64,000 nucleotides of DNA from an uncultured Candidatus Saccharibacteria bacterium (GTDB taxonomy: Bacteria; Patescibacteriota; Minisyncoccia; Phycocordibacterales; UBA2100): assembly GCA_964437185.1 (NCBI GenBank), contig CAYTFU010000002.1, positions 41,296 to 105,295 on the forward strand, written 5' to 3'. Below are positions 5,707 to 52,096 of this stretch, one piece after another. Each line of letters opens with the position of its first letter. Position 1 is the stretch's first letter. The position numbers were made by a program, and so were the translations under genes. The notes below the pieces were generated by a model. The model worked only from the letters and a program-made list of their open reading frames with translations. It had not been told where the DNA came from and did not search any database.

Positions 5707-6612
5707 ATGAAAACAATTCTGATTAAAATTGGTTCTCGTGGAAGCGAACTTGCACTTAAGCAAACAGATATCGTATTCGCGGCGCTTAAGGCAGCGGACC
5801 CATCTGTTTCCGTCGAGGTGCACGTAGTCCAAACACGCGGCGACGTTGACCAGCAACCGATTCCTCTCGACACCATAGGCAAGGGGTGGTTCACGAGAGA
5901 AATAGAAGATGAGCTTTTGCGGGGTGAAATCGACATCGCTGTGCATAGTCTCAAAGATATGGCGGAAGGCATGCCGCCGGGCCTCATGATTGGAGCATAT
6001 CTTCCGCGTGAAGACGCGCGCGATGTTCTTATTACAAAAAACGGCGTGTCATATCAGGAATTAAAGCGGGGAGCAATAATCGGTACCGACAGTTCGCGCA
6101 GGCAGGTACAAATGCTTGCCCTCCGACCTGACGCACGGATGAAAAGCATACGCGGGAATGTGCCGACGCGTCTCCAAAAGCTACAATCTGAAGAATACGA
6201 CGCAATTATTCTTGCTGCAGCGGGTTTAAAACGTCTTGGAATGGAAAAAAAAATCACTCATTATTTTGCCTTGACGGATATCATTCCAGCGCCCGGGCAG
6301 GGAATTCTTGCCGTACAAACACGAAGGGACGACACCGAGTTGGAACAAATACTCGCGCGAATCAACGATCTTGAGGCGGCGCAAGCGGCAACTTTGGAGA
6401 GATTGTTCTCGCGTACCGTCGGAGGCGGATGCAAAGCTCCGACAGGAGCCTACGCCGTAAAGGGACCAGAAGGATGGACATTGACGGCAATGATTGCTGC
6501 AGCAAATGGCCGAATCATCCGGGGAGAAATGAGTACCCAATTAGATGGCGATTTTCAGATCGGCCAACAGCTCGCGAAGAGTCTTCTTATTACCCGTGAT
6601 GCGGAAAAATAA
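5707..6612 (+). CDS. hemC: hydroxymethylbilane synthase (porphobilinogen deaminase)
   Basis: IGSRGSELALKQT, AVHSLKD, RGNVPTRL and GGGCKAP motifs. Confidence 0.92.
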   Translation: MKTILIKIGSRGSELALKQTDIVFAALKAADPSVSVEVHVVQTRGDVDQQPIPLDTIGKGWFTREIEDELLRGEIDIAVHSLKDMAEGMPPGLMIGAYLPREDARDVLITKNGVSYQELKRGAIIGTDSSRRQVQMLALRPDARMKSIRGNVPTRLQKLQSEEYDAIILAAAGLKRLGMEKKITHYFALTDIIPAPGQGILAVQTRRDDTELEQILARINDLEAAQAATLERLFSRTVGGGCKAPTGAYAVKGPEGWTLTAMIAAANGRIIRGEMSTQLDGDFQIGQQLAKSLLITRDAEK

Positions 6613-6613
6613 A

Positions 6614-7159
6614 ATGGAAATAGGCATAGATATTAAGGCGCTGTCGCTGTCGCGAAGCACAATTAGCGTTCTTCGCAATATTGCTCGATACGACCTCATT
6701 GTTTTTACAAGCAAAAATGCACAAAACTTCTTCAAGAGAGCACTCTCGCGGCTTCAAATAAAGCTGCCGAGGAGCAGCGGGATTGTGCGAGTGGGGCCCC
6801 GAAATGATCTTCTTAAACTTGCCGTGCGGGGGAAGCGGATACTATTTCCGCGCTCCGCTCTAGCTCCGCATGACATTATCAGAGGCTTGCGGTCTAAAGG
6901 ATGCTCGGTACGTGTCATTACTCTATACACAGCACATGGCACAAAATTATCCAAAAAACAAAGACAATTGATACTTAGCGGGAACATTGAGAGATTGTAT
7001 TTCAAAAGCCCTTCTGGCGTACGAGGACTTTTGCAGCAAATGCGGGGACGAAATAAAAAGTTAGTACTTTCAATTCTTGCAGAATGCCTCGGCAAAACTA
7101 CCGCAAGTGCGGCAAAAGCGGAGGGCTTTAAAAAAGTGGTAGTTGCAGGCATACTGTAA
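6614..7159 (+). CDS. hemD: uroporphyrinogen-III synthase, short form
   Basis: IVFTSKNAQNFF and FKSPSGVRGLL (the two FTSxxAV-type motifs) plus RILFPRS. Only 181 aa, so it lacks about 60 N-terminal residues of typical HemD. ATG lies 1 nt after the hemC stop. Confidence 0.7.
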   Translation: MEIGIDIKALSLSRSTISVLRNIARYDLIVFTSKNAQNFFKRALSRLQIKLPRSSGIVRVGPRNDLLKLAVRGKRILFPRSALAPHDIIRGLRSKGCSVRVITLYTAHGTKLSKKQRQLILSGNIERLYFKSPSGVRGLLQQMRGRNKKLVLSILAECLGKTTASAAKAEGFKKVVVAGIL

Positions 7160-47082: not shown

Positions 47083-48609
47083 ATGTCTGATTTATTTGAA
47101 CTCATAGGGACCATGTACGTTGGGGCAGTCGATGTCGTATCTGCGCTTATACCGAGATCTTCGCGAAAATCCGCTGCCCACCCTCTGCGGCTTTACAACA
47201 CAATGAGTGGTGCCATTGAGCTATTTAAGCCACTTCGAAAGGATGCGGTCAAAATGTACAACTGCGGTCCGACTGTCTACGGCAGGCAGCATATCGGCAA
47301 CCTTTCGATGTTTATCTTTACGGATACGCTTCGCAAGGTACTTCTGTACAACCACTTCACCGTTAAGCAGGTCATTAATTTTACCGACTTCGGCCACCTA
47401 TCATCCGACAACGACGAGGGCGAGGACAAAATGACGAAAGGCTTAAAGCGCGAAGGAATGGCGCTTTCTATAGAGAACATGCGCGTGCTCGGAGAGAAGT
47501 ACGCGAATATCTTTCTCGAAGACCTTCGCCAGCTCAACGTTGACGTTGATCACGTTACCTTTCCGCGCGCGAGTGACTTTGTATCCGAGCAAATAGCGAT
47601 GATCCGAACCCTGGAAGAAAAGGGCTACACCTACCAGTCGCACGGGTGCGTGTATTTTGATACTTCCCTCTTACCGGACTATGGCAAGCTCGGCAATATC
47701 AATCTGGAGGGATTAATATCGGGCGCTCGCGTCAAAGATAGCCACAAAAAACACCCCACGGATTTTTTGCTCTGGAAAGCGAGTAGGCGCGTGGGATGGA
47801 TGAGCCCGTGGGGCAAAGGATTTCCCGGGTGGCACATTGAGTGCTCTGCGATGATTAGAGCGACGCTCGGCACTCAAATCGATATTCATACGGGGGGAAT
47901 CGAGCACATACCCATCCATCACAACAACGAAATAGCGCAATCTGAATCTGCGACCGGCAAAAAACCCTTTGCTCAGTATTGGCTGCACCGCGCGCATATT
48001 CAACTCGAGGGTTCAAAAATTGCGAAATCTGGCGGCAACGTTATTTACCTCAGCGATGTTATCGAGCGCGGTTTTCACCCACTTGCACTTCGCTACCTTT
48101 TTTTGACCGCTCATTACCGCACTCCCTCAAACTTTACTTGGGAAGCACTCGGGGCCGCTCAAACCGCGTTCGCGAAGCTCGTCGGCTTCCGATTGTCACT
48201 CGCAGACGCTGAAAAAGACGCTGTATCAACCCATTGGAGATCGGCATTTGTGAGTCGACTTAACGACGATCTCGAAACTCCGGCAGCCATCGCGGTGGTA
48301 TGGGAAATGGTTTCGGATAAGTTGCTTAGTAGTGCACAAAAACTTGCTACGCTCCTTGACTTTGATTCTGTACTTGGGCTTAACCTCGCGGAACCCGATG
48401 AGCACGCTCTCCGGCTCGCGCGTGAACACACGAGAGAAGAGGTAGTGGCCGGCGATCTACCCGACGCTATCGCCCACCTCGTCAGAGAGCGCGAAGAGGC
48501 GCGAGATGCGAAAGATTGGTCCAGGGCAGATGAACTGCGGATCCGAATTCAGTCCGAAGGATACGCGCTCGAAGACAAAGATGGCGCTACAAAAATACTC
48601 AAAATCTAG
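47083..48609 (+). CDS. cysS: cysteinyl-tRNA synthetase (with ~30 aa N-terminal extension or uncertain start)
   Basis: CGPTVYGRQHIGN (HIGH), GWHIECSAM and KIAKSGGN (KMSKS variant) motifs. Confidence 0.9.
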   Translation: MSDLFELIGTMYVGAVDVVSALIPRSSRKSAAHPLRLYNTMSGAIELFKPLRKDAVKMYNCGPTVYGRQHIGNLSMFIFTDTLRKVLLYNHFTVKQVINFTDFGHLSSDNDEGEDKMTKGLKREGMALSIENMRVLGEKYANIFLEDLRQLNVDVDHVTFPRASDFVSEQIAMIRTLEEKGYTYQSHGCVYFDTSLLPDYGKLGNINLEGLISGARVKDSHKKHPTDFLLWKASRRVGWMSPWGKGFPGWHIECSAMIRATLGTQIDIHTGGIEHIPIHHNNEIAQSESATGKKPFAQYWLHRAHIQLEGSKIAKSGGNVIYLSDVIERGFHPLALRYLFLTAHYRTPSNFTWEALGAAQTAFAKLVGFRLSLADAEKDAVSTHWRSAFVSRLNDDLETPAAIAVVWEMVSDKLLSSAQKLATLLDFDSVLGLNLAEPDEHALRLAREHTREEVVAGDLPDAIAHLVREREEARDAKDWSRADELRIRIQSEGYALEDKDGATKILKI

Positions 48610-48614
48610 CCTTC

Positions 48615-51600
48615 TTATTCCTTCACAACGAAATTGACCAAGCGGCCTGGCACGAGGATAGTACGTACAATTTCTCTTCCAGCAACGCGCTCGCTCACTG
48701 CCTTCCTCGCTTCCCCTTCTATTGCTGTCTTATCCGCATCAGACGCAACATCGATCTGCGCGCGTGTTTTGCCGTTGACTTGCACTGCAATTGTCATCGT
48801 CTCAGATTTAAGATATTCCGCTTTGTAAACGGGCCACGTTTGTAAGTGGACGGACGACTTGTGGCGCTCCGACCAGAGTTCTTCCGCCATGTGAGGGGCA
48901 AACGGCGCCAGGATTTTCAAGAACGTGTCCCACTGTACTGCGCCAATTTTACCCTCTGACTCAATGGCATTGAGTAGTATCATGAGCTGACTAATGGCGG
49001 TGTTAAATTTTAGCGCCGCGATGTCCTCCCCTACTTTCTTTATCGCTTTGTGCAGAACATTCTGGAGCGCATCAACCTCCCCTTTCGCAACCATAAACTG
49101 GATTTTCCACGCACGCTCCAAAAATCGCCTCACCCCCACCACCCCATCGGGATTCCATGGATAGCTCGACACTTCGTTGTATGGCCCGATAAACGCGAGA
49201 TACATGCGCACCGTATCCGATCCGAGCTGCGCGACTACGGCATCTGGATCGATCACATTCCCGCGTGATTTACTCATCTTTTGACCGTCGGGGCCCATGA
49301 TGAGGGATCGGTTCATGCGACGCGTATACGGCTCTTTGTCTTTCACCAAGCCGAGATCGTACATGGCCTTCTGCCAAAAACGGCTATACAGCACGTGCAT
49401 AGTCGTATGTTCAGCGCCTCCCGAATACAAATCTATCGGCATCCACTTCGCAAGTTTTTTCGGATCTGCAAATTTCGATCTGTTTTTTGGATCACAGTAG
49501 CGCAAAAAATACCACGAAGAGTCTATGAATGTATCGAACGTATCAGTCTCTCGCTCCGCCGGCTTTTTACATTGCGGGCACTTTACCTTCACCCACTTCG
49601 TAGCCTTCGCAAGCGGCGACTTGCCACTCCCCTCCGGTAGATAGTCTTTGACCTCCGGCAACTTCACAGGCAAATCTTTATTCGGCACCGCGACAGGCCC
49701 GCACACGGCGCAGTGAATAATCGGTATGGGCACTCCCCAATATCTCTGACGCGACACGATCCAGTCACGAAGTTTGTAAGTCGTCTTTACTCGTCCATAC
49801 TTTGCCGTAATTCTTCCGATTGCTTCGCGATTCATGAGGCCAGTAAACTCTCCGGAGTCAACAAGTATTCCCTCCTCTGTATATGGCTGGTATCCGGTCA
49901 CGCGCTTCCAAGCAATCATCACATCGGGACGATTGATAAACCGAGAAAATTCTTCGGGCCCGTACCAACCCACATCATGACGTGACTTTTCGTGCTCGGA
50001 AACAATATCTTGCTCGCCGTTTTCTAGACTGTACAAAAGCGGCGTAAAATCTACGAGACGATTTACCTTTTTCTCTACGCTGTAATATTTTCCCCATATA
50101 TGACCGCCGAGAGATCGCACAAGCTTTGCGCTCCGATATCCAGTCTCCTCGCGAATTTCGCGTATGCCAGCCTCCACGGCATCTTCTCCTTCTTCAATAC
50201 CACCCGAGACGCACTCATTGACCTTCGTCGGTTTGAAGTGCACTCCGAGGTATTTGTCCTCCGACCAGTGCTTTACAATCGCAAACACAGATTTTCGGCG
50301 CTCAAGCGGTTCTCCTTCGCGTACCGCATCAAGCCCGCCCTTGAAAAGCGAGAGTGGTTCAACCACCTCCTTAATTGGTAGTTTAAACTTAGTAGCAAAC
50401 TCATGGTCGCGCTCGTCGTGCGCAGGGACTGCCATAATCGCGCCTGTACCGTAGTGGGCAAGCACATAATCTGCTATCCAAACGGGGATCTTCTCTCCTG
50501 TCGCCGGATTGATGGCTCTCACACCCTTCAACTCCACTCCCGTTTTCTCTTTCTGGTCTGCCATCCTCTCCAGCTCCGTCTTTCGCTTTGATGCCTCAAC
50601 GTATGTTTTTATTTCGTCAGCGTTTGCGCACAGACCACTCCGTATAAAATCCGAGACCCAACGGTGCTCAGGAGCCAATACCAGGTACGTCGCGCCGAAA
50701 AGCGTGTCCGCGCGCGTGGTAAAGACTCGCATAGTAGGCCTGAGCCACATAAGCACGTCTGGCTCAGTGTCACCTGTAAAGTGCGTCGCATTCGATACAC
50801 CTAGCTCAACGCGCGTACCGAGCAAATCCGCAAGGGCTTGCGCCTGTTGATCTGAGATGGCGTGATCGCGTGGATCGTGCAAAACCGTAAATGAACCAAC
50901 GTTTCGCTTAATAGCTTCAGAATCAAATTTCCACGACCACGTTTTTTCAAACAGTCTCTTTTTGTCTTTAAACTTCGTATCCACAAAGCCCCCGATGGTT
51001 ACCAGCCGCGCAACGGGCTTCGTAAGTTGCTCCGCCACTTTGAGCGCGAGCACGGCCCCGAGACTGTGGCCAACGATCACAGTGCGTTCATCGTACGTCG
51101 TCGCGCTTATTGCGTACTCGACCTGCTCGCGCTCCGTGGGATTATCAGTGTTGGGAAGGCGCGGAATAACTACTTCGTGACCCATTTTTTCCAGCTCCGC
51201 CTTCACCCACTTCCACCGCGGCGCATCAGGAGTTCCGCCAAATCCGTGAAAAATCACAAACTTGTACTTCTGACCAAGATCGAGGACAAAATCTATCTCG
51301 GCTCCTTCACTTCGACCAATCCAATTTCTCTGAGATTCTTTGATCTGCTCCGGCCAGTCCAGTCCATCGAGGTCGTCGATCAGTCGGTCTGCATAATCAG
51401 TAATCTTTATATTCCACTGCAACATTTTCCTCTGCACGACTTCGCTGTCGCATCGCTCACATCTTCCAGAAACCACTTGTTCATTTGCGAGTACCGTCTT
51501 GTCCTTCGGGCACCAGTTTACCGCGGTCTCTTTACGATATGCGAGCCCCTTTTTGAAAAATTCGAGAAAAAGCCATTGCGTCCATTTGTAGTACGCCGGA

Positions 51601-51986
51601 TCACACGTAATCACTTCTCTCGACCAATCAAAGGATGTGCCCATGGAGCGGATCTGCTTCTTCATGAACTCGATATTCCTGTACGTCCATGTACGCGGAT
51701 TTATGTTGTTCTTTATGGCAGCGTTTTCGGCGGGCAAACCAAACGCATCGAAGCCGATCGGATAAAGCACATTTTTCCCCTGCATCCGCTCCGCGCGCGC
51801 AAAAATATCTGGTACAGCAAATGCGTACCAGTGACCGACGTGCAGATTTCCCGAGGGGTATGGAAACTCGACGAGTAGGTAGGAATTTTTCTTCCCTTTT
51901 ACTGAATCTCGGGTCCTGTAAAGTTTCGATTTATCCCATCGCGCTTGCCACTTTCGTTCAATTGCCCGATGATCATATTTTTTCAT
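48615..51986 (-). CDS. leuS: leucyl-tRNA synthetase carrying two inserted hydrolase domains (Ser-hydrolase and Nudix)
   Basis: PYPSGNLHVGH, Zn finger CERCD, editing TTRADT and GTGAIMAVPAHDERD, KMSKS and the C-terminal tRNA-binding domain are all present. 1123 aa because of inserts at about aa 236-416 and 545-700. Confidence 0.93.
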   Translation of the reverse strand: MKKYDHRAIERKWQARWDKSKLYRTRDSVKGKKNSYLLVEFPYPSGNLHVGHWYAFAVPDIFARAERMQGKNVLYPIGFDAFGLPAENAAIKNNINPRTWTYRNIEFMKKQIRSMGTSFDWSREVITCDPAYYKWTQWLFLEFFKKGLAYRKETAVNWCPKDKTVLANEQVVSGRCERCDSEVVQRKMLQWNIKITDYADRLIDDLDGLDWPEQIKESQRNWIGRSEGAEIDFVLDLGQKYKFVIFHGFGGTPDAPRWKWVKAELEKMGHEVVIPRLPNTDNPTEREQVEYAISATTYDERTVIVGHSLGAVLALKVAEQLTKPVARLVTIGGFVDTKFKDKKRLFEKTWSWKFDSEAIKRNVGSFTVLHDPRDHAISDQQAQALADLLGTRVELGVSNATHFTGDTEPDVLMWLRPTMRVFTTRADTLFGATYLVLAPEHRWVSDFIRSGLCANADEIKTYVEASKRKTELERMADQKEKTGVELKGVRAINPATGEKIPVWIADYVLAHYGTGAIMAVPAHDERDHEFATKFKLPIKEVVEPLSLFKGGLDAVREGEPLERRKSVFAIVKHWSEDKYLGVHFKPTKVNECVSGGIEEGEDAVEAGIREIREETGYRSAKLVRSLGGHIWGKYYSVEKKVNRLVDFTPLLYSLENGEQDIVSEHEKSRHDVGWYGPEEFSRFINRPDVMIAWKRVTGYQPYTEEGILVDSGEFTGLMNREAIGRITAKYGRVKTTYKLRDWIVSRQRYWGVPIPIIHCAVCGPVAVPNKDLPVKLPEVKDYLPEGSGKSPLAKATKWVKVKCPQCKKPAERETDTFDTFIDSSWYFLRYCDPKNRSKFADPKKLAKWMPIDLYSGGAEHTTMHVLYSRFWQKAMYDLGLVKDKEPYTRRMNRSLIMGPDGQKMSKSRGNVIDPDAVVAQLGSDTVRMYLAFIGPYNEVSSYPWNPDGVVGVRRFLERAWKIQFMVAKGEVDALQNVLHKAIKKVGEDIAALKFNTAISQLMILLNAIESEGKIGAVQWDTFLKILAPFAPHMAEELWSERHKSSVHLQTWPVYKAEYLKSETMTIAVQVNGKTRAQIDVASDADKTAIEGEARKAVSERVAGREIVRTILVPGRLVNFVVKE

Positions 51987-52096
51987 ACGATTTCTGCTTG
52001 CCCGTCCGAAGCTTTCCTGACCTTCGTAGCTTTAGCGAAGTAGGTAGCGAAGGAGGGCCACTTTTTCTCAATTTTGGTATGGTCGTACTTCTTCAT
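51983..52096 (-). pseudogene. 37-codon upstream ORF starting with a diverged copy of the LeuRS N-terminus
   Basis: MKKYDHTKIEKKW... versus LeuRS MKKYDHRAIERKW... The DNA differs mainly at synonymous sites, and its TGA overlaps the leuS ATG (ATGA). Confidence 0.5.

Follow-up and report, generated by a model that had tools for sequence, protein, structure and literature searches.

How does a leucyl-tRNA synthetase (LeuRS) come to hold complete foreign enzymes inside its editing domain, and what might they do there? The question is raised by the leuS gene on a stretch of 64,000 nucleotides (nt) from an uncultured Candidatus Saccharibacteria bacterium with a Kaiserbacteria-like (Patescibacteria) genome (assembly GCA_964437185.1, contig CAYTFU010000002.1, positions 41,296 to 105,295), which as a whole is called the window here. 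An original prediction, made from the letters of the window, had read in this open reading frame (ORF) of 1123 amino acids (aa) an in-frame serine hydrolase domain at nt 50739-51281. This range proved to lie within 6 nt of the alignment boundaries (50733-51278), and the ORF length as well as all quoted motifs were found where they had been placed (e.g. GHSLG at nt 51071-51057). Of the extra length of the protein, which had been noted, 182 residues belong to the hydrolase; the rest is due to a second guest of 157 residues, a NUDIX domain, which had gone unmentioned. The parts of the gene that concern the two inserts are the following:

48615..51986, minus strand: leuS ORF of 1123 aa in the ORF listing, a bacterial-type LeuRS with two nested extra domains
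50733..51278, minus strand: nested RBBP9/YdeN-type serine hydrolase, aa 237-418 (182 residues)
51063..51065, minus strand: codon of Ser308, putative nucleophile in the GHSLG elbow, opposite RBBP9 Ser75
50865..50867, minus strand: codon of Asp374, putative triad acid, opposite RBBP9 Asp138
50781..50783, minus strand: codon of His402, putative triad base (in ATHF), opposite RBBP9 His165
49887..50357, minus strand: nested NUDIX hydrolase domain, aa 544-700 (157 residues), replacing Thermus residues 364-375 (12 residues)
50136..50204, minus strand: Nudix box as read from the sequence, G595-x5-E601-x7-R609-E610-I-R-E613-E614-T-G616-Y, aa 595-617

The best match of the leuS product in the PDB was the LeuRS of Thermus thermophilus (1h3n, E value 3e-222), which aligned in four blocks: residues 1-236 with Thermus 1-237, 419-543 with 243-363, 701-898 with 376-579 and 903-1122 with 637-877. 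In this alignment aa 237-418 stand where the Thermus enzyme has a five-residue turn. The hydrolase sits in the loop of the first surface beta-hairpin of the editing domain, and the T-rich motif TTRADT follows five residues downstream. The site had been called the "CP1 hinge". The insert is indeed in frame and in front of the T-rich motif, but the loop lies within the editing domain and is no hinge. "CP1 hairpin" was discarded as a name for the site, too, as this term denotes the zinc-bearing neck in the literature (PMC4138327).

Profile, sequence and structure searches agreed on the nature of the first insert. Three Pfam families exceeded their gathering thresholds in aa 243-404, namely the expected PF06821 (Ser_hydrolase, 25.5 bits versus 22, covering aa 244-404), PF00561 (Abhydrolase_1, 32.2 versus 25.8) and PF12697 (Abhydrolase_6, 31.4 versus 26.3). 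In the PDB, the best phmmer matches of the insert were human RBBP9, with an E value of 8e-10, and B. subtilis YdeN, with 1e-4, and the alignments paired the Ser, Asp and His of the triad. A comparison of the insert profile with RBBP9 by hhalign gave a probability of 99.2% in the same triad register, at an identity to RBBP9 and YdeN of only 23-24%. Besides the GHSLG elbow (aa 306-310), the hydrolase motifs are FVIFHGFGG (aa 243-251, nt 51260-51234), HDPRDH (aa 370-375) and ATHF (aa 400-403). Modelled alone with AlphaFold2 from an alignment of 32 sequences, aa 232-420 reached a predicted local distance difference test score (pLDDT) of 95.6 and a predicted template modelling score (pTM) of 0.92; the domain is thus predicted with high confidence to be folded and not disordered. 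The top Foldseek matches of this model were RBBP9 (9fcr, 7oex, 2qs9) and YdeN (1uxo), with template modelling (TM) scores of 0.80-0.83 over the full length and E values of about 1e-12. The next alpha/beta hydrolases followed at about 1e-6 (7e-7 for the next fold family), which puts RBBP9/YdeN ahead by five orders of magnitude. By sequence and predicted structure, the insert is a complete, lid-less alpha/beta hydrolase of the RBBP9/YdeN family with a Ser-Asp-His triad, and it is predicted to be catalytically competent. This bears out the intact domain with a plausible triad that had been proposed.

The terminal residues at both ends of the model form short strands, consistent with flanking LeuRS strands that still pair as a hairpin, from whose loop the hydrolase would bulge. 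An intein or other self-excising element was considered and rejected, since Pfam and NCBIfam scans of the whole protein detected no Hint or intein family. Furthermore, the junctions of the insert (…DLGQKYKF… and …MWLRPTMRVF…) are without Cys, Ser or Thr splice residues.

The NUDIX insert lies about 125 residues beyond the hydrolase in the same editing domain, between AHDERD…LPIKEVVE and the end of that domain. PF00293 matched aa 591-684 with 33.9 bits (threshold 21.1), and all relatives with a NUDIX insert keep E610, E613, E614 and G616 of the Nudix box. The AlphaFold2 model of aa 540-706 (pLDDT 94.0) adopts a NUDIX fold according to Foldseek, with 2azw, the Ap4A hydrolase 3i7u, MutT1 and Ndx1 as top matches. 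Judged by hidden Markov model (HMM) threshold, Nudix box and predicted fold, the second insert is a NUDIX hydrolase. Its neighbours comprise an uncharacterised Enterococcus NUDIX protein, the Aquifex Ap4A hydrolase, M. smegmatis MutT1, Thermus Ndx1 (Ap6A), Chlamydia CT771 and RppH; Ap4A/Ap6A hydrolases, MutT1, RppH and ADP-ribose pyrophosphatases gave similar Foldseek scores. The best PDB match by sequence was the lupin Ap4A hydrolase (E 8e-5), across the Nudix box only.

Two further observations concern NUDIX domains. A LeuRS of 1558 aa (L008:4093-8767, plus strand) holds four guests, three NUDIX domains and the hydrolase. Thereby, the hydrolase occupies the hairpin, the third NUDIX domain the usual site, and the two extra ones lie between the "LKDL" and "LDWPE" motifs. 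In the window itself, nt 6974-7117 (plus strand) within ORF 6545..7159 showed weak tblastn similarity to the Nudix-box region of leuS (E 0.44, 29% over 48 aa), and this ORF may be a stand-alone NUDIX gene of the same genome.

How widespread the architecture is was judged from the 120 protein clusters closest to the leuS product (59-74% identical overall). Both inserts are found in 110 of them, the hydrolase only in 7 and the NUDIX domain only in 3, so that the NUDIX insert occurs in 113 of the 120. A comparison with related Patescibacteria had been suggested; a one-genome-per-species scan detected eight further metagenome-assembled genomes (MAGs), labelled Kaiserbacteria, Paceibacterota or "Saccharibacteria", which have the hydrolase at the same place of LeuRS, with inserts 38-75% identical to that of the window. 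The identical protein was recovered from the NCBI, ENA and Logan collections on several contigs (the longest of 250 kilobases; one is a Logan contig of run ERR3094293). An assembly chimera was rejected on the basis of these contigs and collections, the MAGs of eight species and the 110 clusters. We also rejected an apparent rarity of the domain: the three matches from a word-indexed search with the insert reflect the sensitivity limit of that search, as an exhaustive one gave 1281 cluster representatives. Far from being rare, the nested hydrolase belongs to the usual make-up of LeuRS in a large Kaiserbacteria/Paceibacteria group.

The statement that no such aminoacyl-tRNA synthetase had been described holds for the literature searched, as our full-text searches found no paper on this LeuRS architecture, no description of an alpha/beta hydrolase or NUDIX domain nested in an editing domain and none of a leuS-linked RBBP9/YdeN subfamily. 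It does not hold for public databases, where such proteins are already deposited under generic names ("alpha/beta fold hydrolase", "class I tRNA ligase family protein", "NUDIX domain-containing protein"); at JGI the architecture is named "leucyl-tRNA synthetase/predicted esterase YcpF". What seems new is the nested architecture. The LeuRS host, the PF06821 and PF00293 memberships and synthetases with extra catalytic domains as such were already known.

Among the relatives, conservation differs between the parts of the protein, with pairwise identities of 77-80% for the catalytic core, 67% for the editing core, 46% for the hydrolase and 43% for the NUDIX domain. Nevertheless, Ser308 is Ser in all 117 relatives with the domain and His402 is His in 118 of 118; the acid position 374 is occupied by Asp in 102 and by Glu in 15 of 117 relatives. 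Because the catalytic residues are invariant despite only 43-46% identity, both inserts look catalytically active; the hydrolase is maintained by purifying selection. A functional insertion rather than decay, as originally proposed, is thus indicated for the hydrolase. In one leuS gene (L005, Kaiserbacteria RIFCSPHIGHO2_12_FULL_53_13) the nucleophile elbow reads GLSLG and not GHSLG, and masked bases (X) stand just after its NUDIX insert.

Both guests are set into the following LeuRS framework:

51318..51986, minus strand: N-terminal half of the Rossmann catalytic domain and Zn-1 region including HVGH, aa 1-223 (PF00133 over aa 12-223; Thermus 1-237)
51279..51317, minus strand: first editing-domain strand GRSEGAEIDFVLD, upstream flank of the insertion, aa 224-236 (GRSEG from aa 224)
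50358..50732, minus strand: core of the CP1 editing domain with TTRADT (aa 423-428) and AHDERD (Asp524), aa 419-543 (PF13603; Thermus 243-363)
48615..49886, minus strand: C-terminal half of the catalytic domain, anticodon-binding and C-terminal domains and stop codon (PF00133, PF08264; Thermus 376-579 and 637-877)

The product scored 949.9 bits with TIGR00396 (leuS_bact; curated cut-off 548.4) and has the class I signatures HVGH (aa 49-52) and KMSKS (aa 903-907), the latter in the C-terminal part together with the second Cys4 zinc knuckle. An alignment of 110 relatives showed a conservation of 95% or more in 10 of the 13 columns of the upstream flank of the insertion. PF13603 matched aa 418-544 with 186.6 bits, and the CP1 editing residues are essentially invariant (T424, R425 and T428 in 120/120 relatives, D524 in 119/120), so the canonical editing site is not degenerate. 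The catalytic and editing motifs (HVGH, KMSKS, TTRADT) are therefore intact, as had been stated. Neither insert disturbs the canonical synthetic site or the CP1 editing site, and leucylation as well as editing are predicted from the motifs. A tblastn search of the window revealed no second leuS and no stand-alone copy of the hydrolase. Missing from the protein is the leucine-specific domain, as nothing stands opposite Thermus 580-636 (residues 898-903 span Thermus 579-637). A short GPDG-type linker in front of KMSKS (aa 896-902, nt about 49281-49301, minus strand) replaces it.

Where LeuRS lacks the hydrolase, an ordinary hairpin of 9-22 residues takes its place. In a tree built from the core only (neighbour-joining, as all trees here, and without support values), hydrolase-less and NUDIX-less LeuRS are scattered singly among neighbours with two inserts, which points to repeated, recent losses. 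Since each insert was lost several times, both are accessory to the essential leucylation. The LeuRS cores of P0249 and P0156 are only about 0.03 substitutions per site apart and one of the two proteins is without the whole NUDIX insert; this difference is either a very recent clean deletion or a strain-level polymorphism.

Where else this hydrolase is used can be seen from the exhaustive HMMER search, in which the insert matched 1281 cluster representatives at E <= 1e-3. The best 150 of them include 48 LeuRS, 81 stand-alone proteins or fragments of up to 215 residues, two valyl-tRNA synthetases (ValRS) with the domain at two different sites and two hydrolase+NUDIX two-domain proteins without LeuRS (P0101, P0102). 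Hosts represented once are alanyl-tRNA synthetase (AlaRS), Fmt, a GatA-like amidase, TsaD, SecA, UvrA, an M1 aminopeptidase, TatD, riboflavin kinase, thioredoxin and LspA. Apart from LeuRS, the family has thus entered five tRNA-acting host families, i.e. ValRS, AlaRS, Fmt, the GatA-like amidase and TsaD, four of which act on aminoacyl-tRNA, and about half of its independent fusion events involve tRNA-handling enzymes. The domain is nested or fused in ValRS P0045 and P0142, AlaRS P0139, Fmt P0074 and the GatA-like amidase P0106. In a neighbour-joining tree of the hydrolase domains, which has long branches and serves as a hint only, LeuRS-embedded and stand-alone forms are interleaved.

Within LeuRS, the hydrolase occupies at least three sites, namely the editing-domain hairpin, a position just after HCxxC of the second zinc knuckle and one before the WPE motif. 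The hairpin, in turn, accommodates other guests. In other LeuRS it hosts an IS200-like Y1 transposase domain, a GNAT domain together with the hydrolase (P0112), or the hydrolase followed by a segment that resembles HAM1/RdgB by eye and was not detected by Pfam; a HAD domain was found elsewhere in one LeuRS. Because such diverse domains are inserted there, the hairpin is a permissive hotspot. This natural tolerance of whole-domain insertions could be useful for engineering. The 998-aa LeuRS P0050 has the Y1 transposase domain (PF01797, aa 269-374) in frame in the hairpin loop, and its hydrolase follows the zinc knuckle. This protein suggests that transposase-mediated events may seed such domain insertions.

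The gene neighbourhoods of stand-alone homologues, the most telling line of evidence, were inspected for the seven closest (35-42% identical to the insert) and three more distant ones, a small sample considered without a formal null. Five of the seven closest lie near leuS (P0009, P0014, P0018, P0037 and P0021); the other two are on short contigs or without DNA. P0009, a protein present on 11 contigs, ends 7 nt before a canonical bacterial-type leuS of 809 aa on the same strand. P0014 ends 37 nt before a leuS of 801 aa and P0018 25 nt before one of 957 aa, again on the same strand, the latter leuS carrying a NUDIX insert and no hydrolase. P0037 sits 1.4 kilobases upstream of leuS. P0021 heads a run of overlapping or abutting genes that encode Ser_hydrolase, Ser_hydrolase, a YbaK-like tRNA_edit protein, a HAM1-like protein and LeuRS (L018:5001-9882, plus strand, GCA_020049755.1). 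This last LeuRS is of the archaeal type (883 aa; TIGR00395 784 bits versus 648.5). One of the distant homologues (L025) overlaps a stand-alone NUDIX gene by 16 nt. The association of the hydrolase with LeuRS thus recurs, as a domain nested at three sites, as an adjacent gene and in an operon. Its association with nucleotide pyrophosphatases recurs as well, with partners co-nested, fused or adjacent.

With a rough probability of 45%, we propose that the insert, coupled to LeuRS, hydrolyses conjugates of an alpha-aminoacyl group with a nucleoside, a nucleotide or tRNA, with the NUDIX domain in charge of the nucleotide-side product. It would be an accessory, LeuRS-dedicated module for clean-up or proofreading. 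His402 and Asp374 would activate Ser308 for an attack on the carbonyl of the alpha-aminoacyl group, which is bound to a nucleoside-type leaving group, and the free amino acid would be released. As substrates, one may consider the 3'-aminoacyl ester on mis-acylated tRNA-Leu, non-cognate aminoacyl-adenylates after their release, 2'(3')-aminoacyl-nucleotide by-products and leucyl-adenylate-mimicking inhibitors. The NUDIX partner may handle the nucleotide-side product or a by-product, e.g. dinucleoside polyphosphates of the Ap4A type made by synthetases.

We infer this substrate class from the activity of human RBBP9 and from the hosts and neighbours of the hydrolase genes. Valacyclovir is the L-valyl ester of a nucleoside analogue, and by chemical analogy it resembles the aminoacyl-A76 end of a charged tRNA. 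RBBP9, the only close relative that has been characterised, is given as a valacyclovir-activating enzyme in a study cited in PMC7730578 (Shenoy 2020). It is also a serine aminopeptidase acting on alpha-aminoacyl amides, with a strict requirement for a free alpha-amine (PMC8866121). The genomic context, i.e. stand-alone homologues beside leuS and the operon with the YbaK-like gene, favours an ester-hydrolysing or deacylating role over an unrelated moonlighting activity, as far as gene order can tell. In Pfam and the PDB, the insert matched alpha/beta hydrolases only and showed no homology to CP1, INS/YbaK, AlaX or DTD; an editing role, if it has one, would therefore make it an editing module of a novel type.

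Several findings weigh against this proposal. None of the three more distant stand-alone homologues lies near leuS. There is no obvious editing defect to compensate, because the CP1 editing residues are fully conserved. Close relatives have lost the hydrolase on three or more occasions, and nothing visible near leuS has taken its place; the family has also fused to proteins that do not act on tRNA (UvrA, SecA, TatD, LspA, thioredoxin and riboflavin kinase). As the insertion site varies and the hydrolase can be a separate protein, a need for precise geometry near the CP1 pocket is argued against. Finally, Glu108, the alpha-amine anchor of RBBP9, stands opposite the variable K343, and Ser76 opposite L309 (Leu or Phe in relatives). 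Because these two residues are not conserved, the specificity of RBBP9 is not simply transferable to the insert, and we rejected a direct transfer of its aromatic-aminopeptidase specificity. A conserved Asp341 is located two residues before K343 in the same loop. At the positions of the S1 cage of RBBP9 (Tyr99, Leu103, Phe140, Leu141), the relatives have Phe at F334 in only 64 of 117, an aromatic residue at F339 in 113 of 117, Ala, Val or Ile at A376, and Val or Ile at I377 in 104 of 117. The S1 positions thus appear to be hydrophobic, with small aliphatic residues at 376 and 377. This retained character counts in favour of the proposal, but the pocket probably differs in shape from that of RBBP9.

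These positions also bear on an unlikely, more metabolic role, in which the hydrolase would be an aminopeptidase that trims N-terminal hydrophobic residues off imported peptides and supplies local leucine to the LeuRS of an amino-acid auxotroph. Patescibacteria are generally without amino-acid biosynthesis. The hydrophobic S1 positions appear to be kept, one homologue (P0103) is fused to a PepN-type M1 aminopeptidase, and a neighbourhood specific to LeuRS would suit a leucine-producing enzyme. Furthermore, RBBP9 is a serine aminopeptidase acting on aromatic residues (PMC8866121). Such a role, however, leaves the recurrent pairing with NUDIX or HAM1-like proteins and the operon with the YbaK-like deacylase unexplained. 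It also fits poorly with the variable residue opposite the alpha-amine anchor Glu108 and with the loss of the insert in close relatives, and we know of no precedent for the channelling of amino acids from a peptidase to a synthetase.

The variety of hosts and guests could alternatively mean that the hydrolase is a passenger, a small housekeeping esterase that settles in permissive loops of long, essential, constitutively expressed proteins of streamlined genomes and gains expression without a promoter of its own, with no link to leucylation. The many unrelated hosts (UvrA, SecA, TatD, LspA, thioredoxin, riboflavin kinase, TsaD), the other guests of the hairpin, the HAD domain elsewhere, the repeated loss of both inserts and their faster evolution compared to the core all agree with this. 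But at least three sites in LeuRS, together with stand-alone genes that directly precede leuS in several lineages, one of which has an archaeal-type enzyme, are hard to obtain by chance, 48 of the best 150 cluster representatives are LeuRS, and about half of the independent fusion events concern tRNA-handling enzymes. We regard a mere passenger as improbable.

A special case of the proposed LeuRS-coupled hydrolase, and one we would expect with rather little confidence, is on-board immunity. The hydrolase would cleave, at the target itself, the aminoacyl-nucleotide bond of Trojan-horse leucyl-adenylate mimics, such as microcin-C-like or agrocin-like compounds and aminoacyl-sulfamoyl-adenosines, and the NUDIX, GNAT and HAM1 domains of sister LeuRS would be alternative means of detoxification. 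We know of no leucyl-adenylate-mimicking antibiotic in the habitats concerned. The patchy gain and loss and the faster evolution of the inserts are typical of defence traits, GNAT and hydrolase occur together in one LeuRS (P0112), and NCBIfam NF040702 describes an isoleucyl-tRNA synthetase (IleRS) with GNAT. Known immunity to microcin C draws on the same chemistries: the serine peptidase MccF cuts the amide of the aminoacyl-nucleotide, the GNAT enzyme MccE2 acetylates the alpha-amine of aminoacyl-nucleosides and MccH is a nucleotide hydrolase (HIT), and TM84 is a Leu-AMP mimic that targets LeuRS (PMC8323819). On the other side, the hydrolase is not homologous to MccF (family S66), and its near-universal presence in the clade (110 of 120 clusters with both inserts) is more housekeeping-like than defence-like.

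That the insert is a structural or regulatory spacer without catalysis, or stems from an error of assembly or annotation, is a general possibility to which only the faster evolution of the insert compared to the core lends something, and it is highly improbable given a triad and GxSxG elbow kept over about 117 diverged sequences, the confident predicted fold, and the identical protein in several collections with the architecture shared by the MAGs of eight different species and 110 clusters.

The proposal of a LeuRS-coupled aminoacyl-conjugate hydrolase can be extended, tentatively and with more doubt than trust, to a third hydrolytic site of LeuRS in Patescibacteria and in archaeal-type LeuRS operons. 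There, an RBBP9-type hydrolase together with a NUDIX or HAM1-type pyrophosphatase would destroy aminoacyl-nucleoside or -nucleotide species, conceivably the ends of mis-acylated tRNA, non-cognate adenylates that have escaped, or toxins that mimic leucyl-adenylate. In the prevailing view, a small, closed set of editing folds secures the fidelity of aminoacyl-tRNA synthetases. If true, the third site would be a new class of synthetase proofreading or self-defence module, with a fold unprecedented in synthetase quality control. A hydrolase built into or beside bacterial- and archaeal-type LeuRS and paired with NUDIX suggests additional quality control, by-product clean-up or self-protection against antibiotics. 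To our knowledge, the natural substrates of the RBBP9/YdeN family have long been unknown and its bacterial members are without known function; the third site, if real, would hint at aminoacyl-nucleoside esters as such substrates and would give the family a physiological context.

Some features around leuS stand apart from these questions. A 37-codon ORF upstream of the gene (nt 51983-52096, minus strand, MKKYDHTKIEKKWPSFATYFAKATKVRKASDGQAEIV*) is read in another frame than leuS. Over its first 13 residues it repeats the N-terminus of LeuRS, and its TGA stop codon overlaps the leuS ATG (ATGA). It is not present 5' of leuS in L001-L008 and may be what is left of a 5' duplication, or else a coupled leader peptide. 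The leuS leader showed no significant RNA fold (z = 0.15), and scans of the window revealed no tRNA and no Rfam match. The cysteinyl-tRNA synthetase gene (508 aa, nt 47083-48609, plus strand) is convergent with leuS, with 5 nt between the stop codons. The gene order YchF, DUF5671 membrane protein, leuS and convergent cysS is kept in the relatives L009, L010 and L011.

Among known systems, the Mycoplasma mobile-type minimal LeuRS resembles that of the window in lacking the leucine-specific domain; PMC3643597 gives the tetrapeptide GKDG at the position of this domain in M. mobile, where the window protein has the GPDG-type linker. The M. mobile enzyme is reduced, whereas the LeuRS of the window is reduced at the linker but enlarged by two domains in CP1. 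IleRS with GNAT (NF040702, ileS_w_GNAT) is likewise a class Ia synthetase of uncultured lineages with an additional enzyme domain. That domain is of another type, whereas the window LeuRS has two hydrolases nested in its editing domain; for neither IleRS-GNAT nor LeuRS-hydrolase was a function described in the literature that we found. The microcin C immunity enzymes MccF, MccE2 and MccH cleave or modify aminoacyl-nucleotide conjugates, the chemistry proposed for the insert (PMC8323819), but there is no homology, and they stand alone or in biosynthetic clusters and not within the target synthetase.

With RBBP9 (2qs9, 7oex, 9fcr) and YdeN (1uxo), the insert shares the lid-less alpha/beta fold of about 180 residues, the GxSxG elbow, the triad at homologous positions and, by prediction, the hydrophobic character of the pocket. 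In contrast to these free-standing proteins it is nested within a domain of another enzyme, and the LeuRS-linked subfamily has conserved motifs of its own, FxD341xxR344 and WxFD. The CP1 editing domain and the trans-editing deacylases (YbaK/ProXp, AlaXp, DTD) are, like the proposed function of the insert, synthetase-linked hydrolytic modules that cleave aminoacyl esters, and a YbaK-like gene shares one operon with homologues of this hydrolase and leuS. Fold and mechanism, however, are unrelated: as a Ser-His-Asp alpha/beta hydrolase the insert would form an acyl-enzyme intermediate, and the protein of the window keeps its intact CP1 editing site besides it.

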